From a virus, in the IMG/VR virus record IMGVR_UViG_3300043540_000321, positions 96,001 through 160,000 of that record: DNA of 64,000 nt; one strand, written 5' to 3'. Positions 6,015 to 31,594 of this stretch are shown here, in pieces; within the stretch, counting starts at the first letter, position 1; every line of letters starts with the position of its first letter. Made by a program: the position numbers and the translations under genes. The notes beneath the pieces are model-generated. The model was not told where the DNA came from. It worked only from the letters and a program-made list of their open reading frames with translations, and did no database searches.

Positions 6015-9000
6015 CTGTAGCTATCTGAGACCGTTCCCATCAGTTCAGCTCTGCGGCTCGCAGTATCCTCAAACTCAGTTGCAATGGGAGTACTCTCGTC
6101 ATTAATGACGACTAGGCCTCCCATAATGTCCTGCTCAAGCTGTGTAGGAATGGCCGAGATATCAAAGTCGATCCGTTGGTTATCGTCCGTGTCAAGGACT
6201 TCATACTCCTGCTGTTGACTAAAAATATCTCTCAACTCCATCTCAGTTCGGTCGACCTGCTCGCCCGCCTCCTCTAGCAAATCCCCGACTCGGTCTGGGA
6301 TATACTCTCCAATCAGCGTTCTCTGCTGAGTAGCCCCTCTAGCGATCGACAAAGACGCAATCGTACTGAGAACTTCTGCCCCAACCGTAAGTAGAGCGGA
6401 CTTCCCGGACGGGGTCTCGTGTGTGCGACCGCTAAGTTTATCGACAAGGGCGTGAGAGACCGCGTTGATTCCGGCGAACATCGTCTCCTGAGTAAACCCT
6501 TGAACCGCACCCAGCATAAACCCTTCTGTTGCCATTGAGTTCTTGATGCGAGAGAGGGAGAATGCCACAGCAGCATCCTGAGAGTGTCCAGATAGCTGAG
6601 CGGTGGCCGTATCTTTCTGACTGCTCAACATCGCTACAGCCTGAAGGGTATCGAACCCGAACTGCCACATCCGATCGTCGAACTTAGCCCCAGCTCCAGC
6701 CGCCGCCAGCAGAAGGGGCGCGGTAAATGCCCCAAACATACTGGCATGTCGTTCGGACTTCTCCATCGCTCGAAGGTTCTCCACCGGAGTCTTTCGATCG
6801 AGAGGCGCGGCTGAAAGTTCAGTCAACTTCTCCTGAACATTTCGAAGAACCTGGTTTGCTTCAGGAGTCGTTCGGACAACCCCCATCTGCTGCACCTTGT
6901 CAAAGTTGATCTCCCCATGCTCATAGATGCCCGCCAACTGTCTTCGCATAGACTCGGCATAGCGTATCGAGTTCTCATCCTGCTCATGTAAACTCCCAAG
7001 GCTCTCTAGCTGGTCGAAGAGACCGTAGACCCCCTGAGAAATAGCTCCGGATGTTTTCTGGAGAACAGCAAGAGGGGTACGACCACCTGGAGACGTGAGC
7101 ATCGCTTCTGTCAAGATGGCCTGCTCCCCACGACTTAACCCAGGGAGTCCAACTCCCATCAGTTGAGCCGCTCGCTGTTGGTTAGTGGGTGACATGGCCG
7201 ATAACTGGTCGTAACCCCTCAGTCCCTGAAACTCAGCCAACTTGTAGTAGGCCATATAGAGGGCATCGGAGGGCATCAGTTGTTGCCCTCGCTGCAACAT
7301 TCGGATGTAAGCGTTGTAGGTATCGATGTTGGCCCCTATCATTCGTTCGGTAATGTCACCTGACCCAAACCGAACTCTGGAGGTCGCTTGGAAACTCTCT
7401 CGCAAGCCTTTAATCTGATCTACGGAGAGAACACCGAACTCTTTATTTCGATGCTGAATTTTAAGGAGAGTGGACTCTTGCACCAAGCGCTCGTTTAGCT
7501 GCCCCAGGTCAGAAGTCGCAGACCGCTGCTGCTCATACTCGGAGACCAGGTCATAATACTGACGGTCTATGCCAGACAGTTTATTGCTGTCAGCCTCCGC
7601 GTGAAAGTCTCTCAACTGGTCAACATAGAATTGCTTAAAGTCAGATGAGAGAGTGGAGCTGATAAAGGCGGCCTGCGATCGCTCGAGTAAACCCTGGATC
7701 TGAAGTGCTGCGAAGTCTGCGACATTAGAAGCTCGACGCGACAACCTTGCTCGACGATACTCTTTCTCCAGCCCAGGCTGTTCCACGAACCGTTTGTGCA
7801 GGTCGGTCTCGTCATCCGACATGGCGAACTCAGCCAACCGAAGCAGGGCACCGAAACCCGTTATCCCCGGATCGTGAACCTGACCTTCTCTTAAACGAGC
7901 GGCTGTTCCTTCCAATCCAGGTGGCGTTGAGATGTCTGGACCCAGTCGAGTCGAGACGACCTTCTTAATTAGGTCTATGCGGTCGCGGTCGGTCTCCGCC
8001 TCTTCGATGAGTTGAGATAGGGGTTTGCCATTGGCATCTGCCTGGCGGAGAATGCCGATCAAACCTTTCTCCGATTTCTCCTTCAAGGCATCTCGAATGA
8101 GCTGCTGCATCGTACCGAGAGTCCCAACGGTACCACTGTAATTCTCCAGCAACATTCCTCGGAGTGAGGACGTGTTATCCATCAATTTCTCTCGAAGTCC
8201 GCGGATCTCCTTCCGACGACGAACGTCTCCTTCTCGCTGCTGCATAGCCAGAAGGTTAGTGTCCAACGTTTGCTTGAATGATTCTGCTCCCGTTGTTTGC
8301 AAGCCAGCCGAGATAGACTGACCCATGATCGCCCTGTCTAACAGGGGAATTAATACGTTGTAGGTCTTTCCAATCAGCTCGGTACCGGCCTGCCCGATAG
8401 TTGCTTGTAACCCCTCCATCTCAAAAGGATTAACAATTGTACCGGCTGCCTTCTTCAGACTTTTATTAATTTGCTCAACGCCCATCGCCACGTTCGCCTG
8501 AAATGCAAAGTAGTCTCTGGACTTACTCAAAAATCCCTCGAGAGTGTCACTTCTAGAATGTGTAGTCAGGGCAGACCACTGACTGCGAATGTCTTCAGGC
8601 AATTGACTGAAGCGGGCGTCTTTCTCCAACCCAGACAACTCTGGCGAGAAGGGAACGCCTCCTTGTAGAGGGTCAAAGAACTTCTGTAGAGCTGCGAGTC
8701 TTTCCTCCGTTTTATGAAGATGTGAGCGGGCATCCTCTATCTGAGGCATTGTGCCGGAAAGCTGCTGAACCATTGCCATCAACGTTCCAGTTGAGACCTT
8801 CTGCTCGTTATTGATGATGAAGTCTGGAAAGGCTACATAGCTGCCAACCCACTTCCGTACGTCTTTCAGAGCGCGAGATGGTGTTCGATCAAGATGAAGA
8901 CTATTTTTATTAACCTCTTCGATACCTTCTGTCAGTTGTTGATAGTGCGTCTCAAGCTCGCCTCTCAGGATTTCAGCCTGTTCGCTAAGAGAGCTCATCT

Positions 9001-16201: not shown

Positions 16202-16468
16202 TTAGAAGCGTGTCGCCGGAAACAAAATGGCGGAGATTTGAGAATAGAGAATACTGAGTTGGTTGATTTCGTGCGCGGTGAACCCCTCCTGCTTAGACTT
16301 GTCTTTGAGACGAAAGATTAATGCCTGAATATCATTCAGGTCGTAGAATCGAATTAGAAATGCGATCGCCTGACTCTCTGTCATGGATGTTTCCTGACAG
16401 AACCTAGAAAGCCAGATTCTATTTCCGTCTCGAGTGGGCGGGGTCTTATCTGCATAGAAAGGGATCAT
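16202..16468 (-). CDS. hypothetical protein
   Basis: 88-aa ORF directly upstream of the giant gene on the same strand. Confidence 0.6.
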   Translation of the reverse strand: MIPFYADKTPPTRDGNRIWLSRFCQETSMTESQAIAFLIRFYDLNDIQALIFRLKDKSKQEGFTAHEINQLSILYSQISAILFPATRF

Positions 16469-18765: not shown

Positions 18766-19412
18766 TGTTAAAGCGTAGAATGTTCCCCCTTATCGTCGGG
18801 TTCGCAGGAGCGTCCGAAGTCGGTAAAGATAAGGCCGCTGACTATATGGTTGAGCAGTTCGGATACGAGAAGTACGAACTTAAAACAGACCTTATCAAAG
18901 AGGTTAACAAGCAATACGACCTCGACCCCTATAAGTTGAGAGGGCAAACACCGGAGGATAAGAAATGGCGGAGGCAACCTCAGCCGACCCTAGCTGGGAG
19001 ATGTCCTCTGGACATAATGATCGATATTGGCGAGAGGAGGCGGGAGCTCAATCCTACTTACTGGTTAGACTTACTGATGGCATCTCTGCGGGAGCCTTTA
19101 GAGAAGCAACCGATCGTCATCTCTGATGTGAGAAGGTTTGCAGAAGCAGACCGAATCCGCCAGCTAGGTCTACTGCTTTATCTTGAGCGGGGGAACCCTA
19201 CTTTTAGTAAGGCTGAGCGAGAGCTGGAGCAGGTCAAGCAGATCGCTTTTCGTGTGATCAACAATAACGAGTCCTTAGGCGCGTTGTATGTCCGGATCAA
19301 TGGAAGTTTAAGACTATGGGCATCTCGAACGTTATCGTCGCAACCATCGGAGGAGTCGCCGCTATATTCGGCAGCACGGCGATCGCATTTGCTGTCTTTG
19401 CATTCGCCCTGA
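18765..19412 (+). CDS. deoxynucleoside monophosphate kinase (T4 gp1-like)
   Basis: VGFAGASEVGKDKAADY P-loop variant and VISDVRRFAEADRIRQLG motif. Confidence 0.85.
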   Translation: MLKRRMFPLIVGFAGASEVGKDKAADYMVEQFGYEKYELKTDLIKEVNKQYDLDPYKLRGQTPEDKKWRRQPQPTLAGRCPLDIMIDIGERRRELNPTYWLDLLMASLREPLEKQPIVISDVRRFAEADRIRQLGLLLYLERGNPTFSKAERELEQVKQIAFRVINNNESLGALYVRINGSLRLWASRTLSSQPSEESPLYSAARRSHLLSLHSP

Positions 19413-23550: not shown

Positions 23551-23592
23551 AGGGAGCTTCTTCTGCGCGTGAACAGAGGCTCCCTTTTCTCT
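23551..23592 (+). terminator. putative intrinsic terminator
   Basis: AGGGAGCTTCT...AGAGGCTCCCT followed by TTTCTCTT. Confidence 0.5.
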
Positions 23593-23672
23593 TCCTATTA
23601 TCCTCTTGCTAGAAAAAATCCATTGGAAAAAATGACGCGGATTTGAGAGAGGGGTTGATTTGATCGATCCGA

Positions 23673-23723
23673 CCACCCCCGCCACTTATTGCAGATTAAT
23701 TTGCAACAAGTAGCGGGAGGTGG
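23673..23723. repeat. 51-bp imperfect palindrome centred on TTGCAGATTAATTTGCAA
   Basis: CCACC-CCCGC-C-ACTT-A-TTGCA...TGCAA-C-AAGT-A-GCGGG-A-GGTGG. Confidence 0.8.
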
Positions 23724-23794
23724 GTTCGCTTTCGCGACGTGTGCGTTGAAGCAAAGGGTCGATTAATTACTACCACTACGATTGGAGAGTCAAT

Positions 23795-24355
23795 ATGTTA
23801 CTCAGTGATAAGCCTTTTGTTATAGACAGAGGCAATGTACAGGCTATGAAAGCACATAGCCAGATAGGTAAACAGCGAGCCGCTCAAGGTCTCGAGGATT
23901 GGAATACACCTGAGGAGCTGAGAGGCAAAGAGGTTGAGCAATGTGTAGCTCGATTGTTAAATACCTGCTTGCAGGTAGACCAGGTAAAGCGAGCTAATAG
24001 GGGGTCTGTCTTAGATGACGAGGTCAAGGTTGACCTCCTAGTCTATGTAGGGAATGAGGTACAGGGGTTCCAAGTAAAGACTTCTCAAGCGGCAGCAGAG
24101 AGGTTTCATATGGAACACCCTGAAGTTCCATGTATCTGGTATGCAGGAACTAATAGACTCCAGCTCTGTGTAGCCATCGCTCAACTGCTTCACACAAAGA
24201 TGAAGCCAGTAGTTAAGAACGCTCTAATGAAGTTCGACCTACTGAAGTCTAAGAAAGTTAGCAATCCATCCGCACTGAGAAACCTCTTCAGTAAAGACGA
24301 GCAAACAGTCTGTGTTGTACTCGGACTACTTACTGAAAGAGCGTTTTCTAGCTAA
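23795..24355 (+). CDS. PD-(D/E)xK nuclease-fold protein
   Basis: DDEVKVDLLV...GFQVKTS pattern. Confidence 0.5.
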   Translation: MLLSDKPFVIDRGNVQAMKAHSQIGKQRAAQGLEDWNTPEELRGKEVEQCVARLLNTCLQVDQVKRANRGSVLDDEVKVDLLVYVGNEVQGFQVKTSQAAAERFHMEHPEVPCIWYAGTNRLQLCVAIAQLLHTKMKPVVKNALMKFDLLKSKKVSNPSALRNLFSKDEQTVCVVLGLLTERAFSS

Positions 24356-24388
24356 CCCATATAGGGGAAGACCAATAGTCTTCCCCTA

Positions 24389-24440
24389 CTCCGTCGCTGG
24401 GTATTGGTAGCCCAGCTTGAAAAGTTACTTCGAAACGGAG
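24389..24440 (+). ncRNA. type III hammerhead ribozyme 1 (U3-A8 core variant)
   Basis: CTCC-GTC / GCTGGG-loop-CCCAGC / TTGAAAA / G-TTACTT-C / GAAAC-GGAG; predicted cleavage after C24395. Confidence 0.7.
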
Positions 24441-24446
24441 GATTTT

Positions 24447-24656
24447 ATGGACAGCAAACTACTACAACTAATCGCCCTTTCTCAAACTACTGAAGTTGAT
24501 ACGACTCAAACGGTCTATCAACTCAAAGTTAAAGGAATTCCCTGTGGACTCTTTAACGAGATAGGCGATGCAGAAAACGCAGCCGAAGACGCTGGGTTCG
24601 ATTGTCGCGACTACCAAATAGTCGTCTTCTCAGAACCGGACGTTAAAGCCTGCTAA
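24447..24656 (+). CDS. hypothetical protein
   Basis: GGAGG RBS, ATG 24447. Confidence 0.75.
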   Translation: MDSKLLQLIALSQTTEVDTTQTVYQLKVKGIPCGLFNEIGDAENAAEDAGFDCRDYQIVVFSEPDVKAC

Positions 24657-24690
24657 GACTTAGTCCTGCGATCGAACGATCGCAGGACTT

Positions 24691-24744
24691 CTCCGTCGCT
24701 GGGTCTGGTAGCCCAGCTATGACAAGTTACCAAACGAAACGGAG
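24691..24744 (+). ncRNA. type III hammerhead ribozyme 2 (U3-A8 plus one-nt core insertion)
   Basis: CTCC-GTC / GCTGGG-TCTGGTAG-CCCAGC / TATGACAA / GTT-ACCA-AAC / GAAAC-GGAG; predicted cleavage after C24697. Confidence 0.6.
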
Positions 24745-24751
24745 GTCTATT

Positions 24752-25060
24752 ATGGCTACCACAACAACAGTTGCAACCGTAAATGAACTTAACTATCTGT
24801 CTGCTCGCCTGCGTGCAGAAGGGTTTGTCGTTAAAGTTCATAAGCTTGAGCAGGGTTGGGAGCTGACACTTTCCGAAGGCGGAAGGCCAAGCTCATTTCA
24901 ACCCAAACAAACGGAAACCGGTGAGGAGATTATCTTCTTTAACCTATCCGAGTTTAAGCGAGGTGAGGCAATGGCTGCCGATCTTCGCGAGCAAGGAATT
25001 GCTTGCAAGTTCGCTAAAGCCAAGAGTGGCAGATGTTGGTATCTCAAAAGACTTGCATAG
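24752..25060 (+). CDS. hypothetical protein
   Basis: GGAGG RBS, ATG 24752. Confidence 0.75.
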   Translation: MATTTTVATVNELNYLSARLRAEGFVVKVHKLEQGWELTLSEGGRPSSFQPKQTETGEEIIFFNLSEFKRGEAMAADLREQGIACKFAKAKSGRCWYLKRLA

Positions 25061-25073
25061 TCTACAACAAAAC

Positions 25074-25112
25074 AAACAAAAGAGGAGCTGAAAACAGCTC
25101 CTCTTTTGTTTT
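25074..25112. terminator. bidirectional hairpin terminator
   Basis: AAACAAAAGAGGAGCTG-AAAA-CAGCTCCTCTTTTGTTT. Confidence 0.65.
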
Positions 25113-25124
25113 AAGGAGGTCATT

Positions 25125-25283
25125 ATGTTGGAAGCAATCTTGATGGATTTAGCAATTGAATTAGTTGTTGATTGCGTGTTAGGTGCTGTTATTGCAGATG
25201 CTGAATTAGGAATTCTTGAACCTTTCGTCAGTGAAGGGGTAAAGGAGCTCGCTAAGAAGATCTACAAGAATCGCAAAGGCTGA
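25125..25283 (+). CDS. small hypothetical protein (52 aa)
   Basis: AAGGAGGT RBS; MLEAILMDLAIELVVDCVLG...KKIYKNRKG. Confidence 0.7.
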   Translation: MLEAILMDLAIELVVDCVLGAVIADAELGILEPFVSEGVKELAKKIYKNRKG

Positions 25284-25316
25284 ATTTATAGGGCAGAGAA
25301 AGTAATTTCTCTGCCC

Positions 25317-25374
25317 TGTTTTGGTCGCTGGGTATTAGTAGCCCAGCCTGACGAGTTACTACGAAACCAAAACA
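25317..25374 (+). ncRNA. type III hammerhead ribozyme 3 (canonical core)
   Basis: TGTTTTG-GTC / GCTGGG-TATTAGTAG-CCCAGC / CTGACGA / GT-TACT-AC / GAAAC-CAAAACA; 9-bp stem III; predicted cleavage after C25326. Confidence 0.88.
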
Positions 25375-25390
25375 AAGCGAGGACAAGATT

Positions 25391-26050
25391 ATGTTGACAA
25401 CTACAAATCTCCAACAACTGAATACTCTGACCGTTATCGTTCTTGAAGCTCAGAACACGGCTGACAATCTACGCCGGAGAGCTATTCGATCGATGACCAA
25501 CTACGACAATTGGACCGCGATTGCATTTGCAGCAGACTGGGCAGAACTAGATAGGAAAGCATACGCTGCCCTGTTCAATAGAAAGAATTACGACTTGCTG
25601 TGCAGCGCGATCGCCCTGGTCGTAACCATCTTCTGGACATGCTACGTGTCTGCGTGTGAAGCGATTGAATACCTGGCTGAAACGACTTCTCCGGTTGCGC
25701 CCAGTGTCTACTACTTCAGCCCACTCTATGTGATGGACCTGGATGACTATGAGGAACTTACTTGCGACCTATGGGCACCACCTGAACTGGATGAAAAGCT
25801 GGTCTGTGATGTTTGGGAGCTCGTTGAAGTCGAACCACTACCGACGGCAAATCCAGATGTAGAGGTTGCGATCACTGTCCAAACAAGTCTTTATCTCCTG
25901 CCGGCTGCTCCTGTTGAAGTTAATGATGTTGAGGATGAAAAGACGACAGTAGCGACTAAGCAGAAGAGGGCAAGCTCGAAGGCAAAAAAGTCCAGCCCAA
26001 AGGGAAAGTCGAGAACTTCCAAATCGAAGTCGACGAAACAGTGTGCATGA
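25391..26050 (+). CDS. hypothetical protein with one hydrophobic segment and a Lys/Ser-rich tail
   Basis: 219-aa ORF, GAGG RBS. Confidence 0.7.
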   Translation: MLTTTNLQQLNTLTVIVLEAQNTADNLRRRAIRSMTNYDNWTAIAFAADWAELDRKAYAALFNRKNYDLLCSAIALVVTIFWTCYVSACEAIEYLAETTSPVAPSVYYFSPLYVMDLDDYEELTCDLWAPPELDEKLVCDVWELVEVEPLPTANPDVEVAITVQTSLYLLPAAPVEVNDVEDEKTTVATKQKRASSKAKKSSPKGKSRTSKSKSTKQCA

Positions 26051-26089
26051 AGAAGTTTCACAGTTTTGTAACCAATAAGGAGGCCTATC

Positions 26090-27256
26090 ATGGCTACCAA
26101 CAATTTTGACCAATCAACCCTGTCGATCGTTGATGAACTCTTCAAGTCCTTGTTCAAGGAAGAAGATACAACGATTGAAGTCGCTGGCCGCAAATTTAGG
26201 CCAGCGGTCCTAAAACGGAATACGCTCAACCTTAGCGACGTTCCCAGGACAGTCCGGGAAACATTCTCTTTCCACAAAGACTCGATTGTTCAGCCCAGGG
26301 AACGGGGTCGGCACTCTATCATCGTCACGCTCCTCTCTATGAGGTTCTCTGACGATGGTCAGATGCTGGTTGCAGCTCCTTCTATCCAAGCCGCCACCTA
26401 TAGCGGAACATCTAAGATGTTGCCTGTAGGTGACTGGAACCAGAAGGCGGTACTCACAGGGCGGGACCTTTTCATTCAAGCGGATTTTATGAGCTCGGAT
26501 GATGGTCTCACTATTCTCAACCCTGTTGTTCTGAAACGTCCGTACCCAGCCGGTAAAGATGATGGAAACGTCTCCGTCATGCTGTGCGGTTCGAACAAGA
26601 CAGATAGCAACTGGAAGGAAAAGCACAACCATGCTCGAGACGAATTTAGGAAGGCAGCACTCAATGTTGCCCAGAGGTTAGGCGTCCCTTCCGGAGAACA
26701 GTTCATCATTTGCCTTGTTGGATTTCCGGTTAGGTCGGGAGAAAACAACGGTGAGACTGATTCGTTCTGGGGAGCCATCTTAGAAGGCGGTTACCTTCTG
26801 GGTGGTCGGCGCATCAACCGTGTTAGTAAGGCTCCAGACCCGAACGGCAAGCTAGGTGGTTTGAGAATCTCCTCAGATTTCCAAGTCACCTCCTGTAAAA
26901 CCGTGGCTCAAATGCTCGAAGAACAGTTAGCTGCTCAGTTAGCTACTCGATCTGTTCAGGTCGATCCTAAGTCTGAACCTGAACCTGAGCCAGTGCTTGA
27001 ACAACCTGAACCTGAACCTGAACCTGAACCTGAACCTGAACCTGAACCTGAACCCGTGGTTGAGCCTTCTCAACCACGGCGAGAAAGTCTCTTAGAGAAG
27101 TTGGGTCCGATAACCAATGACTCTGATGAATTTCAACTTCTCGAAGAGTCCTCGGACGATGAGGAAGAAGTGTTCATGGGCAGGGTCGGAAGCATCGCTG
27201 AATTGCTGAAAACCAATATCAAACCGGGCAGAGAGGATAATCCCTTCTGCCCTTAA
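26090..27256 (+). CDS. hypothetical protein with (EP)n linker and acidic tail
   Basis: 388 aa, AAGGAGG RBS; the tail ..EDNPFCP loosely resembles an SSB tip (weak). Confidence 0.65.
   Translation: MATNNFDQSTLSIVDELFKSLFKEEDTTIEVAGRKFRPAVLKRNTLNLSDVPRTVRETFSFHKDSIVQPRERGRHSIIVTLLSMRFSDDGQMLVAAPSIQAATYSGTSKMLPVGDWNQKAVLTGRDLFIQADFMSSDDGLTILNPVVLKRPYPAGKDDGNVSVMLCGSNKTDSNWKEKHNHARDEFRKAALNVAQRLGVPSGEQFIICLVGFPVRSGENNGETDSFWGAILEGGYLLGGRRINRVSKAPDPNGKLGGLRISSDFQVTSCKTVAQMLEEQLAAQLATRSVQVDPKSEPEPEPVLEQPEPEPEPEPEPEPEPEPVVEPSQPRRESLLEKLGPITNDSDEFQLLEESSDDEEEVFMGRVGSIAELLKTNIKPGREDNPFCP
27005..27054 (+). repeat. (CCTGAA)n hexamer microsatellite encoding (PE)n
   Basis: About eight perfect units, plus shorter copies at ~26972-26990. 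Confidence 0.9.
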
Positions 27257-27265
27257 GGAGGTCAT

Positions 27266-30200
27266 ATGGATACGAAAGTTCTGTGCAAGAACTGGAACGT
27301 ACAAGCTGACCCGTTCTACGCAATGTACAAGAGAACGGGGCATAGCCTTGACGATGTCCAGAGTTTAACACCCGCTGAAGCCGTGCGGGTTGTGTTCGGG
27401 GATGCGGTCGGTGACGCGATCGCTCCTGACGGCGATATCGAAGGCTCACTTCAAAACGTAACTCTGTTTGCTACATGGTGCTACATGTACCTGCGGCAGA
27501 AAGTTTCTACCGTCAACTGTCCCGTGAATCTTGGAGAAGAGTTCTACCTGGAACTCACTTCAGCTCCATTCATGGGTGCTGACTTGCTGTGTCAGATTGG
27601 TCAGCAACTTACAGATGACGCTGTTATTAAGGAAGCTCGCAAGGTGATGGAAACTTTGATCGGAGCAGGAGATAAATACCGTGAAAACCTGAGTCGCTTG
27701 GCTCAAGCATACGGATTGATTCCCTCTGCTATCCGGCAGGGTTTGCTATCCGCCTGTATCTCTAAACTGACAGACCGCAAGGTCCTAACCTTTGCTGCCT
27801 GCCAGAACGTTATCGAAGAGGTTGTTGGTGTAGCTCCCAGCAATCTGGTGTACGTCAACCCTAATTGGATTCGCTTCGGCGACTTCCTGGCTACTGCTCA
27901 GGACGTTGCTGTTGTGCTGAATTGGCTATCCCGCGCATTTAGCGATGTCTTTGAAGTCAAATCCTGCGATGACGGGTTTAACTTCTGGGTTGAAGGTACT
28001 CAGTTTCACTGCACGTCTAAGGACGGCGTGTTCCACATTGAACGCAATCGGCATATCAATGGGATGCTTTTAGTTAATAGCTCGACTGGTCGGCACCCCA
28101 CCGAGCCAGTTGACCCCGAAAACCTGTCGCTCGTAAACAGCTACGGTACGGTCATCTACGCTCTGTTGTATGGAGCGCCTGGTTATGTTAACAAAGGCAA
28201 AGGTTGGGACAGCTTCGTCAACAAAGTCCTGGTCAAAGGAGACGAATATCCTTTGACATCTGAGGATGAAGTTGGACCCGCAGATGGCGATCGTAAGTTT
28301 CACGAACGCTATGTAACGGTAACTCGACCTCAGCCCGTCGACGTTCCGTTTGCGCTCATTCGCTTCACGGACGGCTGGTTTCTCAGTACTCAGTCTGTCT
28401 CTATGAAGACTGGTTATGCCACCGAGTCAGAAAACAGCGTACGCCTACCGCAAAATAGCTCTATTGACAAGGCTGCTCTCTGGGCATTCAACCTAGTTCG
28501 GATGCCAAGCGGAGCTCTTATTGATGGACGGCGGAGCTGTATTCAACTTCGACACACTCAACAACCAGCCAACTTTGCCAAGGCTATGATGTTGAATCTG
28601 GCCGGCACCGACGATATTCTGCGAGCTGAAGGTTATGCCCGCTCCATCGTTAAGGTTCCAGACGGAAAAGATACCTGGGAACACCTGGGTGAATATCTGA
28701 TCGTTGGCTTGTCTTCGAAGTTAGCCAAGCTGATTAAACGGACAGCATCCGATGCTGCCGTTGTCGCAAAGTTAGAAGATGGGCAGTCTCGTGGGTTCAA
28801 GCGGTTCGGACAGACTAATGAGTCAACTAACAATTGGCTCGTTGAATCTGTTGTCTCTGCACACGCAATCTGGCCGGCTGGTATGGCCTGCTATTGGGGT
28901 GATGAGCCTCAACTGTTGGTTGACCATACGGAGTCCATTCAGTTGCCTTTCAAGGGTGATGTAGATGAGACTACAGTGAGTGTGCCTTATACCGAGTACA
29001 TGGGTGAAGTCTATCTGGAAGATGGATGGTTCAAAGTTACGATGACCACCCCAATTCCAATTGACAAAGGTGGATTGGCTGGAGAAGTCCAGGTGTGCTG
29101 CAACGGAATCGAATATCCGTTTGCTATCACATCCAAGACTCCGGACGCTCAGCTCGTAGGTGTCGAATGGCAAGAACGCCGTGGCTACGGTGACCTCAAG
29201 ACTTTGTTCGTCAAAGTAAGGACTATCACCGTGGAATCCGAAATCAAAGCTCGGAATGGTGTGAAGGCTATGCTGACCCGCTACGACCGTCGGTGCTTGT
29301 CCCTCAATAATGAGGATATCGCTGCTCGTGCGATTTTCTTCAAGGACACAAACAAGTGGCTAGACCTGGCGACTCAAATCTGCGATATCGCTGCTTGCAC
29401 AGCTATCCAGAATAAAGATCCGCAGGGCCTAGCTCTTATTCACTCTGCCAACGCCGCCGCTGGTGTATCTCATAGCGACTATCTGGAATGGTCTCCCGTG
29501 CTCGCTATGATTGGCGTCTATCAACCTCTACTCAACTGGTTCGAGTCCAAGTTTGGTCGCTCGATCTGGTTCAAGTGGGAAGATTCCACTTGTGACTGGA
29601 CGACAGTGCTGCGTCTCATGTACACGAAGCACGACAGTCCGAATGAAGCCGAGCGAGCTGAACCAGTTGCTGGTTGGAGCTATGTCGACCATGACAAGCT
29701 TGACTTTCTACCCAGCACAGCATCTGATGTGCTGGCTATTGCAGACGGTGACTTCGAGGATGAGCATACGAATGTTGTAGTCATCTACCGCGTCGGCGGT
29801 ATTGAATACTTCGTTCAACGTGCTTATTCCTTCGCTGGAACCTCGGCTACCGGACCCGTTTGGCAACCAGTTAAGGCTGAGTTGTCTAGTGTTCGTGCAG
29901 GCGTGACCCAGTCTCCTTTAATGTCTGGAGTTATCCGGGCCGTTGAAGGTAAAGATTTGGACTATGCCACACGACTGGCTGCGGATGGTCTGCAACACGT
30001 TCAACGTGCCTCTACTGTTACTCGGATGGCTCGAGGTCTGGGTGGCGTGCAGAATGTTGTACTCGGAACGCCTGACGCAATGTCCGTTCTGTGTACAGAA
30101 GAATTGCAAGAGCTGGTGACCAACCCGCTACTTCAAGGTCAGCTCGTTAGAAAGTTGGCTGAGCAGTTCCCAGACACATTCTTCATCGTGCCTGGTGCTT

Positions 30201-31594
30201 ACGGGACATTCAGCCTGCATCTACCTACCGTGGTGGAGCAGGACGGTTCCGATAACCTGTGTTCAAGTGTGACAATGGCGGGCCTGACCGCTCAGCTACT
30301 GTCACTAGCTATCCTGGGCGCAGGTGCTGACGACAAGGTTTTCTGTGCGATCGCTCGTTCTCTGAACGGTGCGATTCGGAAACTTGCCGAAAGTGAAACA
30401 CTGGCGAAAGCGGCCGCCTACGGTCGCGTAGGCGTCAGCGCAAAATGTAAAGCGCTGCCGGGTATTGGTGTGGGTGAAGTTTGGATTAGGTTTAGCATCC
30501 GACACAACTCTGTTTATCAAACCATGAGAAGAGTTATGGGTAAGGACCTTGACGGCCGTAAGGTCCTTATGAGCAGAGCTCCGATGACAAACCCATCTGT
30601 CCTAAAGGTCAGAGTTATTAAACCCATTCATCCGATGGGAGACTACGTTGAAGCCGACTCCATTTATCTGTCCCCTCTAGGGCAGATGTTAAATGGTGGG
30701 GACTTCGATGGAGACCCTATCTATCTGACGGATGCTAATGACTCAAACCTTCCTGTAACAACGTTGAAGACTATCATCGACAACGTTATTGCTAGAACAG
30801 GCAGTGACCAACTCAACCCAGGTGCATCCTACTGGGGCGACCACTTCGAAATTCTTTCTGCTGATGCTGTAGCTGAGAAGCGCACTATTGGCAAGAAGAA
30901 CTTGTCCATGCTCAATGACGATGGCCGGAAGGCTCTGCCTACCATGTTAAAAGGCTCTTCAGTAATGTTCGAGTCCGCCATCAATTGGGCTCACAGGATA
31001 TTCCTGACTTCAGACCTATATCTATCTCTGATATGGGCGCTGCAGGAAGACCTGATGGTCAAGTACCCGGGGTGGAAACCCAATTCATTCACTCAAAACC
31101 GCTCTCTAGTTCTCTTGTTGGCTGAGCTATACGAGATCCCATTAGGGGGACTAGACTGGAATGCTCATGACGCTATCATGGGCGGGTTGGTCCCGATTAT
31201 CCGCGACCTTAAAACTCAGTTCGACGGCGAACAGGTTAATAAGTTCGTGGCTGACTTAGAGGCGGCTGGAATCAAACGTGGTGGAAGAGATATCCATCGC
31301 GCAGCAGTCCAAGCGGCTGAATGTCGCAAGCTGAGCAGTGTCAAAGCGAAAGTACCACTGCCTGCTGTTATTCACGGAACCACTCCAGAAGGTTTTCTCT
31401 GTGCCGTGTCTGAGATGTCTTCGCTCATTAGCAAAGGCGACTTTACTATGACGAGCAAAGTTCACGCAACGATGGCATGTGAGATTGCTGATTGGCTTAC
31501 CAAGCATGACGCAGATGGTAAACTGACCGCGAAAAGCACTGTTCTGATGCAGATCAGACAGTATCTTGACCTGATGGTTGAGGGTGTCAAGTAA
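27266..31594 (+). CDS. single-chain two-barrel (YonO-like) DNA-dependent RNA polymerase
   Basis: EIKARNGVKAM (beta-like K/R/K motif, aa ~660), VLMSRAPM and LSPLGQMLNGGDFDGDPIYL (beta'-like RxP and DFDGD, nt 30698-30715). Confidence 0.8.
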   Translation: MDTKVLCKNWNVQADPFYAMYKRTGHSLDDVQSLTPAEAVRVVFGDAVGDAIAPDGDIEGSLQNVTLFATWCYMYLRQKVSTVNCPVNLGEEFYLELTSAPFMGADLLCQIGQQLTDDAVIKEARKVMETLIGAGDKYRENLSRLAQAYGLIPSAIRQGLLSACISKLTDRKVLTFAACQNVIEEVVGVAPSNLVYVNPNWIRFGDFLATAQDVAVVLNWLSRAFSDVFEVKSCDDGFNFWVEGTQFHCTSKDGVFHIERNRHINGMLLVNSSTGRHPTEPVDPENLSLVNSYGTVIYALLYGAPGYVNKGKGWDSFVNKVLVKGDEYPLTSEDEVGPADGDRKFHERYVTVTRPQPVDVPFALIRFTDGWFLSTQSVSMKTGYATESENSVRLPQNSSIDKAALWAFNLVRMPSGALIDGRRSCIQLRHTQQPANFAKAMMLNLAGTDDILRAEGYARSIVKVPDGKDTWEHLGEYLIVGLSSKLAKLIKRTASDAAVVAKLEDGQSRGFKRFGQTNESTNNWLVESVVSAHAIWPAGMACYWGDEPQLLVDHTESIQLPFKGDVDETTVSVPYTEYMGEVYLEDGWFKVTMTTPIPIDKGGLAGEVQVCCNGIEYPFAITSKTPDAQLVGVEWQERRGYGDLKTLFVKVRTITVESEIKARNGVKAMLTRYDRRCLSLNNEDIAARAIFFKDTNKWLDLATQICDIAACTAIQNKDPQGLALIHSANAAAGVSHSDYLEWSPVLAMIGVYQPLLNWFESKFGRSIWFKWEDSTCDWTTVLRLMYTKHDSPNEAERAEPVAGWSYVDHDKLDFLPSTASDVLAIADGDFEDEHTNVVVIYRVGGIEYFVQRAYSFAGTSATGPVWQPVKAELSSVRAGVTQSPLMSGVIRAVEGKDLDYATRLAADGLQHVQRASTVTRMARGLGGVQNVVLGTPDAMSVLCTEELQELVTNPLLQGQLVRKLAEQFPDTFFIVPGAYGTFSLHLPTVVEQDGSDNLCSSVTMAGLTAQLLSLAILGAGADDKVFCAIARSLNGAIRKLAESETLAKAAAYGRVGVSAKCKALPGIGVGEVWIRFSIRHNSVYQTMRRVMGKDLDGRKVLMSRAPMTNPSVLKVRVIKPIHPMGDYVEADSIYLSPLGQMLNGGDFDGDPIYLTDANDSNLPVTTLKTIIDNVIARTGSDQLNPGASYWGDHFEILSADAVAEKRTIGKKNLSMLNDDGRKALPTMLKGSSVMFESAINWAHRIFLTSDLYLSLIWALQEDLMVKYPGWKPNSFTQNRSLVLLLAELYEIPLGGLDWNAHDAIMGGLVPIIRDLKTQFDGEQVNKFVADLEAAGIKRGGRDIHRAAVQAAECRKLSSVKAKVPLPAVIHGTTPEGFLCAVSEMSSLISKGDFTMTSKVHATMACEIADWLTKHDADGKLTAKSTVLMQIRQYLDLMVEGVK

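Follow-up and report, generated by a model that had tools for sequence, protein, structure and literature searches.

What are the three similar RNA elements that separate small genes ahead of a probable RNA polymerase gene in the virus record IMGVR_UViG_3300043540_000321, and why would they be repeated in series at this locus? The source genome, 195,211 bp long, is judged complete; the stretch analyzed here (hereafter, the window) comprises 64 kb of it, and all coordinates are window positions unless a contig is named. Each element is a cassette consisting of a strong hairpin and a hammerhead, on the plus strand (24362-24440, 24662-24745 and 25290-25373). The hammerheads appear to be genuine type III ribozymes of a phage-borne subfamily characterized by a stem I of 6-7 bp and a stem II of 1-3 bp, a conclusion that is well supported by the sequence comparisons described below. 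The explanation that, as a whole, we consider probable is that these hammerheads lie in one plus-strand unit and cut it after the GUC triplet, so that each small gene obtains its own message.

The three cassettes share the order of components, from a stop codon through the strong hairpin, the hammerhead-like element and a Shine-Dalgarno sequence to a start codon. In the minimum-free-energy folds of the individual cassettes (z = -5.2 to -5.7), a hairpin of 11-12 bp precedes stems I and III, and these folds together with a motif descriptor reveal a three-way junction in which stems I and II are closed by loops and stem III is open. In the first cassette, an 11-bp hairpin (24362-24388) abuts stem III of hammerhead 1 (24389-24440), the core of which, UUGAAAA, is a variant with a U3-A8 pair. 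The second cassette consists of a 12-bp hairpin (24662-24689) that abuts stem III of hammerhead 2 (24690-24745), with the core UAUGACAA, where the U3-A8 pair is accompanied by one extra nucleotide after position 3. The third one starts with another 12-bp hairpin (25290-25317) and continues with hammerhead 3 (25318-25373), which contains the canonical CUGACGA core. Thus, the spacer between the upstream hairpin and stem III is zero in all three cases. Cleavage is predicted after GUC, at 24395/24396 in copy 1, 24697/24698 in copy 2 and 25326/25327 in copy 3. The refolded hairpins lie within 2 nt of those listed in a preliminary description of this DNA, and the new 5' ends proposed there (24396, 24698 and 25327) match the cleavage sites implied by GUC, as does its report of a CUGACGA/GAAAC core in copy 3. 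The same description ascribed this layout to each intergenic space, which is the case for three of the four spaces; the remaining one (25061-25124) contains only a terminator-like hairpin with flanking T and A runs (25074-25111, no strand assigned), which is not followed by a ribozyme.

All three copies contain GUC and GAAA, and the full conserved type III core is found in copy 3 only. Stem III is formed by CUCC/GGAG in copies 1 and 2 and by GUUUUG/CAAAAC in copy 3; this covariation, noticed at the outset, is supported in the alignment of 29 sequences discussed below, with partial ascertainment. Copies 1 and 3 differ at five positions, every one of which is either free to vary or compensated. 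In copies 1 and 2, the Shine-Dalgarno sequence (24437-24441 and 24741-24745, respectively) is itself the 3' strand of stem III.

These elements are not dispersed over the genome. Within the window, GCTGGG..CCCAGC, the pattern of stem I, is found at three positions (24396, 24698 and 25327), compared to 0.05 occurrences expected by chance, and these are also the only three copies in the entire 195,211-bp genome. A generic type III hammerhead descriptor applied to both strands genome-wide yields no good candidates other than the three window copies. All three hammerheads are contained within 985 bp on the coding strand, and the open reading frames (ORFs) that they flank encode 69 aa, and 102 and 52 aa.

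The Rfam searches count against the assignment of these elements to the hammerheads. At the gathering threshold, the only Rfam match in the window is a tRNA, without any hammerhead; a search at E <= 10 over the 1.15 kb from 24300 to 25450 retrieves no ribozyme, and neither does a search of the whole genome for Rfam hammerheads at E <= 10. With very short queries, copy 3 scores 18 bits against RF00008, far under the gathering cutoff of 48.5, copy 1 finds no match, and copy 2 matches the type II model alone, at 13.8 bits, with no type III match. A search with the Rfam type III models, which had been put forward as a check of the identification, would therefore fail on its own given that no copy reaches the gathering score. 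The short stem II (1-3 bp), the two U3-A8 cores and the single insertion all contribute to these low scores. The sub-threshold scores, as well as the fact that, among the three copies, stem I and its loop are more conserved than the catalytic core, would be in line with a different interpretation whereby the repeats represent a conserved hairpin that serves as a signal for a protein, be it a phage polymerase promoter, an RNase III-type site or a translational operator.

The evidence that bears on these interpretations comes from relatives of the three copies. These were gathered by pattern scans of viral and metagenome contigs and parsed with a script; about two thirds of the pattern matches were chance occurrences lacking a core or a stem III and were discarded, and two sequences resembling degenerate hammerheads (L027 and L118) were excluded from the family. 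The search for further copies in relatives suggested by the preliminary description thus proved productive, with 26 distinct relatives identified in viral and metagenome contigs. A covariance model seeded with eight gap-free family members, including copies 1 and 3 (which score 81.5 and 78.1 bits, respectively, as part of the seed), recovers copy 2, which is absent from the seed, with 51.3 bits and an E value of about 1e-15, and finds nothing in the window beyond the three copies.

Covariation was assessed on an alignment of 29 distinct sequences built with the model; a MAFFT alignment misplaced the core insertions. In this alignment, 93% of the cells are paired, compared to 28-45% in slid controls; 10 pairs are altered on both sides, against a mean of 5.0 in shuffled alignments, and the observed covariation score is reached in 0 of 500 shuffles. 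The search patterns fixed stem I, GUC and GAAAC, and a filter demanded two pairs in stem III, the covariation of which is therefore partly ascertained; the covariation at positions 3 and 8 is unaffected by these patterns. This tertiary pair is C-G in 22 sequences and U-A in 7, and is mismatched in none. Some relatives combine the same stem I with a normal 4-bp stem II and a GNRA loop, and one of these matches RF00008 with 39.5 bits (E = 1.4e-7); for a sequence almost the same as copy 3, the score is 27.9 bits (E = 1.1e-5). Together, the covariation over the 29 sequences and the gradation of the relatives into RF00008 matches, with E values from 1e-5 to 1e-9, bear out the identification of the elements as type III hammerheads. 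The conserved unpaired nucleotides coincide exactly with the hammerhead core, in the right order and with the right spacing; the 3/8 pair covaries, and stem III covaries in exact register beside GUC and GAAAC; the relatives grade into canonical hammerheads, and equivalent slots in a related contig are occupied by other self-cleaving classes (see below). All this argues against a protein-read hairpin signal, which we regard as highly improbable, the least credible of the alternatives considered here.

The variation of the core itself follows a pattern. One extra nucleotide after position 3 is present in copy 2 and in four metagenomic relatives, the inserted base being A, G or U, and the pairing of position 8 with the first core base is retained in all five of these sequences; other relatives carry an insertion of the A6a type, which has been described previously. 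Previously, insertions at the junction between stem I and the core had been seen only in saltern hammerheads; those near C3 caused a severe loss of activity under standard conditions, which was avoided at high salt or Mg2+. Both other peculiarities of the window copies are known in natural hammerheads: U3-A8 hammerheads are active, with covariation at 3/8, and a stem II of 1-2 bp has been described (Perreault et al. 2011; PMC3088659). In all three copies, helices of 5-6 bp can potentially form between loops I and II, and in copy 3, replacement of G by A in loop I converts a G-U pair of this helix to A-U; in a few relatives, the pairing sequence differs. A base-paired contact between the two loops may well characterize the subfamily. 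Its statistical support is modest: the mean loop-loop helix is 4.2, compared to 3.5 after shuffling, and the tests by shuffling of individual sequences are mostly not significant.

Examination of the placement of family members shows a clear preference. A Shine-Dalgarno sequence and a start codon are located 10-41 nt downstream of the hammerhead in 26 of the 27 family members, and a strong hairpin lies no more than 6 nt upstream in 17 of 28 cases. Most relatives are present as a single copy per contig; in two (G004 and L097), a second, different hammerhead is found 1.1-1.3 kb away. The ORFs downstream of the family hammerheads are small and mostly unrelated to each other, with at least 17 unrelated ones in very different contigs. 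In a marine subgroup (L025, L031, L068, L039, L073, L098 and L114), the hammerhead is preceded by a conserved TTAGA-containing sequence instead of a hairpin. This sequence is possibly a phage promoter, and the ribozyme would in this case trim the 5' leader rather than part cistrons.

A homology search with the polymerase encoded downstream of the cassettes leads to three syntenic contigs, L139 (a 220-kb metagenome contig), L141 and L142, in which the genes for the 186-aa, 388-aa, polymerase and helicase proteins are conserved. The L139 polymerase is 43% identical to the window protein over the full length. The region between the homologs of the 186-aa and 388-aa genes in L139 is variable and consists of six consecutive small genes (6600-8480). 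Within this region, Rfam detects four matches to twister-P1 (RF03160), with 51.3, 49.2, 33 and 32 bits (E values from 1e-9 to 4e-4), as well as two weak matches to the hepatitis delta virus (HDV) ribozyme, with 28.3 and 26 bits (E values of 0.3-0.9). The twister copies differ from each other by a compensatory change in P2. In the HDV-like candidates, by our own reading of the helices, a 7-bp P1 that opens with G-U, the P4 hairpin and, ahead of P2, a C-GAA junction are recognizable, and the L3 loop is one base off that of HDV itself. All six L139 elements have a hairpin directly 5' and, on the 3' side, a conserved leader with a ribosome site that ends in GAGGACAAACA..ATG. The called starts at L139:6664, 7291 and 8096, which lie inside the twisters, are probably miscalls. 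Thus, the arrangement of hairpin, ribozyme, ribosome-site leader and small ORF, in the same region ahead of a homologous polymerase, is common to the window and L139, and the ribozyme folds are different, with the caveat that the HDV-like assignment is weak by score. Given that the same slot in L139 accommodates twister and HDV-like classes with the same placement, these comparisons argue that the selected activity is cleavage itself, across ribozyme classes, rather than one particular fold. A search for twister-P1 in the genome that contains the window finds none, which is weak evidence of absence because the control genomes are blank as well.

L141 and L142 each contain a long imperfect hairpin with shared GxCTGC...GACAGCC arms (L141:8735-8800, L142:8520-8585) that matches no Rfam family and is flanked by a terminator-like hairpin on one side and by the 381/431-aa gene on the other; ribozymes are found near this place in the window and in L139.

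The proposed mechanism can be described as follows. A single plus-strand transcript would start near 23.65 kb and proceed through the small genes, the 388-aa gene, the probable polymerase and the helicase. Each of the three ribozymes would then cut it after GUC at the positions given above. Hammerhead cleavage products carry a 2',3'-cyclic phosphate and a 5'-OH. The upstream RNA would accordingly be left with a 2',3'-cyclic phosphate 7-9 nt past a strong hairpin, and a hairpin at the 3' end of an RNA is a known barrier to 3' exonucleases in bacteria. On the other side of the cut, the RNA would carry a 5'-OH and open with the hairpin of stem I, the new end being 50-65 nt ahead of the start codon. 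For copies 1 and 2, a further consequence of cleavage would be that the Shine-Dalgarno sequence is separated from the 5' stem III strand that masks it. The net result would be that the stability and translation of each small gene become independent of its neighbors. The subdivision of the operon RNA by self-cleavage into pieces that start with a 5'-OH and end in a protective hairpin, as originally suggested for this locus, is plausible, and the mechanism fits the anatomy; in the related phage, hairpins are placed likewise before the twister and HDV-like elements.

Several observations have to be set against this mechanism. Only 13 of the 27 family members, copies 1 and 2 among them, have the Shine-Dalgarno sequence inside the 3' strand of stem III; in copy 3, it lies outside this stem (25379-25383). 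Copy 2, by analogy with the saltern hammerheads in which junction insertions depressed activity, may be slow or conditional as a ribozyme. In the corresponding region of L141 and L142, a search at E <= 1 finds no known ribozyme, and only hairpins together with the long imperfect hairpin are present, so that the ribozymes are not essential for the operon. Under an alternative explanation, the ribozymes are mainly baggage of acquired small-gene cassettes (a ribozyme, a small ORF and a hairpin) that pile up in a variable slot, where they either insulate the inserted gene or are partly decayed; copies 1 and 2 might then cleave poorly, and the operon would function independently of processing. The gene content of the region between the 186-aa and 388-aa genes indeed differs among the window, L139 and L141, ribozymes are lacking there in L141 and L142, and members of the same hammerhead subfamily precede the numerous unrelated small ORFs of very different contigs, generally as single copies; the non-consensus cores of copies 1 and 2 point in the same direction. 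However, the variant cores retain the 3/8 pairing and recur in independent contigs, which is indicative of continued selection. Moreover, acquisition of the cassettes overlaps with processing of the operon transcript and does not exclude it. This alternative appears unlikely.

The pairing of hammerheads on both sides of a small gene suggests one more possibility, that the 302-nt RNA between the first two cleavage sites (24396-24697) is excised and circularized into a circular message for the 69-aa ORF. The ends of this RNA, that is, core 1 and the CUCCGUC sequence of hammerhead 2, would rebuild a nicked hammerhead, and closure could occur through reverse ligation or with the help of an RtcB-type ligase. 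Such a circle demands matching stem III strands, and those of copies 1 and 2 are indeed identical; the end chemistry of hammerhead products is suitable for ligation, and viroid-like RNAs and retrozymes are known to form comparable circles. The identity of the strands is more simply accounted for by the Shine-Dalgarno sequence GGAGG that is shared by both 3' strands, and the second piece (24698-25326) has ends that do not match. Besides, circular or spliced products of clustered phage hammerheads have been sought, and none were found (Perreault et al. 2011; PMC3088659). Circularization is therefore very unlikely in our assessment, and processing of the transcript into linear messages remains the preferred explanation.

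A stronger version of this explanation would have cleavage as a requirement: it would unmask the Shine-Dalgarno sequence of the next gene, provide this gene with a hairpin-capped 5'-OH end and stabilize the message of the previous gene, with hairpin, ribozyme and leader forming a module before each small gene, in which the ribozyme class is interchangeable, in cyanophage-like viruses of about 200 kb that encode their own two-barrel RNA polymerases. RNA viruses of plants and fungi offer a comparable case: in their 5' untranslated regions, hammerhead, HDV and twister motifs can replace one another, and self-cleavage is needed for translation (PMC13725137). We consider this extended version possible, even if doubtful.

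How do these cassettes compare to the known systems? The preliminary description knew of no serial cassette of this kind that feeds a phage RNA polymerase operon, and the implied novelty does not hold. Clusters of phage hammerheads were published in 2011 (PMC3088659) and have been covered repeatedly in reviews. In that work, phage and prophage transcripts were found to contain hammerheads in series on both sides of single genes; clusters from three bacteria cleaved themselves in vitro, and one set did so in E. coli; processing of long phage transcripts into gene-length messages was proposed, and loop-loop pseudoknots were reported (Perreault et al. 2011; PMC3088659). The window cassettes resemble those clusters in being confined to one strand over about 1 kb, in flanking single small, non-conserved genes, and in the possible loop-loop pseudoknots, the stem II of 1-2 bp and the U3-A8 pair. 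They differ in their occurrence in a 195-kb hot-spring phage with two candidate two-barrel polymerases, in the upstream hairpin with zero spacer, and in the identity of the Shine-Dalgarno sequence with a stem III strand in two copies; cleavage is predicted here. What is new at this locus and appears worth following up is the swap of the ribozyme class between syntenic operons and the constant adjacency of the hairpin.

With the Rfam families RF00008 (Hammerhead_3) and RF02276 (Hammerhead_II), both of clan CL00010, the window copies share the core, in variant form in copies 1 and 2, the three-way junction and the cleavage site, and differ in scoring far below the gathering cutoffs; similarity to the bacterial type II consensus is seen in stem I and in the putative UGG/CCA contact of the loops. 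Another similar case is that of the saltern hammerheads HHmeta and HHphage (haloviruses HF1/HF2; Perreault et al. 2011), where a hammerhead lies about 13 nt before the start codon of an early phage gene and, similar to copy 2, the segment that connects stem I to C3 contains extra nucleotides. The saltern insertions (2a/2b) consist of two nucleotides, whereas those in the present family, from a hot spring in the case of copy 2, consist of one, which is placed after position 3 on the strength of the 3/8 pairing in five sequences.

The closest engineered counterparts are insulators and aptazymes such as RiboJ, in which a hammerhead located before the ribosome site removes the upstream context and, in some designs, frees a masked Shine-Dalgarno sequence. 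Those constructs are synthetic, whereas the arrangement described here is natural and its effect is predicted. In phage T7, the early polycistronic RNA undergoes serial RNase III cuts that leave hairpin-ended 3' termini. T7 thus relies on a host enzyme that acts on double-stranded sites, whereas the RNA described here would cut itself.

The genomic context is informative with respect to the beginning of the unit. The conserved first gene encodes a 186-aa protein (23795-24355, plus strand), with homologs in the same relative place in L139 (44% identity) and L141 (33%). It is preceded by a promoter-like motif (23629-23648, plus strand) of the form GGAA, a run of A, TG, two variable bases and GCGGAT, and, further upstream, by a terminator-like hairpin (23560-23579) that follows the previous gene. 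The motif recurs before the homologous first gene in the three contigs (L139:5790-5890, L141:7480-7580 and L142:7185-7285), and a second copy in the window (16224-16243) is located in a divergent intergenic region beside a 3395-aa gene. The motif is a candidate promoter or regulatory site. Because the terminator-like hairpin and the conserved motif precede the 186-aa gene, it is plausible that the cassettes occupy the start region of an early operon.

The first two cassettes are followed by ORFs of 69 aa (24447-24656, plus strand) and 102 aa (24752-25060, plus strand), the latter with 38% identity to a 108-aa protein of L141. For these two ORFs, the program lists starts that are part of hammerheads 1 (TTG at 24417) and 2 (ATG at 24719). 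The ATG codons at 24447 and 24752 are the likely starts because they have a proper Shine-Dalgarno sequence and the listed ones lie inside the ribozymes. Hammerhead 3 is followed by a 219-aa ORF (25391-26050, plus strand), and the variable small-gene region is closed by the 388-aa gene (26090-27256, plus strand), the product of which shows 31-33% identity to L139 and L141 proteins. This gene contains a tandem GAACCT repeat (26963-27075) that encodes a Glu-Pro dipeptide repeat and is responsible for a spurious Pfam match to PARP. Searches of PHROGs and Pfam with the neighboring proteins return almost nothing, BLAST of the region 23700-27300 against a phage collection finds no match, and a search of viral contigs for related loci with the 388-aa and 1442-aa proteins detects none. 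The DNA of the window is matched in one sequencing run, of DNA from a hot-springs metagenome; among the runs recorded as RNA, none contains the region.

The next gene (27266-31594, plus strand) encodes a 1442-aa probable single-chain two-barrel RNA polymerase with a GGDFDGD motif and is followed by a gene for a PIF1/Dda-like helicase. The look-alikes of this polymerase candidate in the Atlas are viral clusters, in two of which PF05183 (RdRP) is present in 57% and 32% of the members, which can be considered only a lead. The 3395-aa protein contains a GDYDGD motif and is encoded among virion genes on the opposite strand; the genome encodes two candidate two-barrel RNA polymerases. BLASTP comparison of the two giant proteins reveals no similarity beyond the DxDGD motif, and sequence searches of PDB with both find no match. 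The polymerase candidate is encoded by one gene in the window and in L139, and is split into proteins of about 1110 and 365 aa in L141 (10001-14478) and L142 (10001-14496), with a 47-nt gap that contains a hairpin and a ribosome site. In addition, L142 carries a gene for NblA, a protein involved in phycobilisome degradation (18997-19248), which suggests cyanobacterial hosts for this group of phages.

This locus changes nothing in the understanding of the hammerhead fold itself. Its significance lies, first, in the existence of a widespread phage hammerhead subfamily that is missed by the current Rfam thresholds. Second, wherever ribozymes occur in these operons, the pattern is constant: they are found in the same variable slot, after a hairpin and just before a ribosome site. 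From this pattern follow testable predictions on the protection of the 3' ends, the status of the new 5' ends and the unmasking of the ribosome sites. Homologous operons that contain three hammerheads, four twisters and two HDV-like candidates, or no ribozymes at all present a clean comparative case for the role of self-cleavage in the expression of phage genes.

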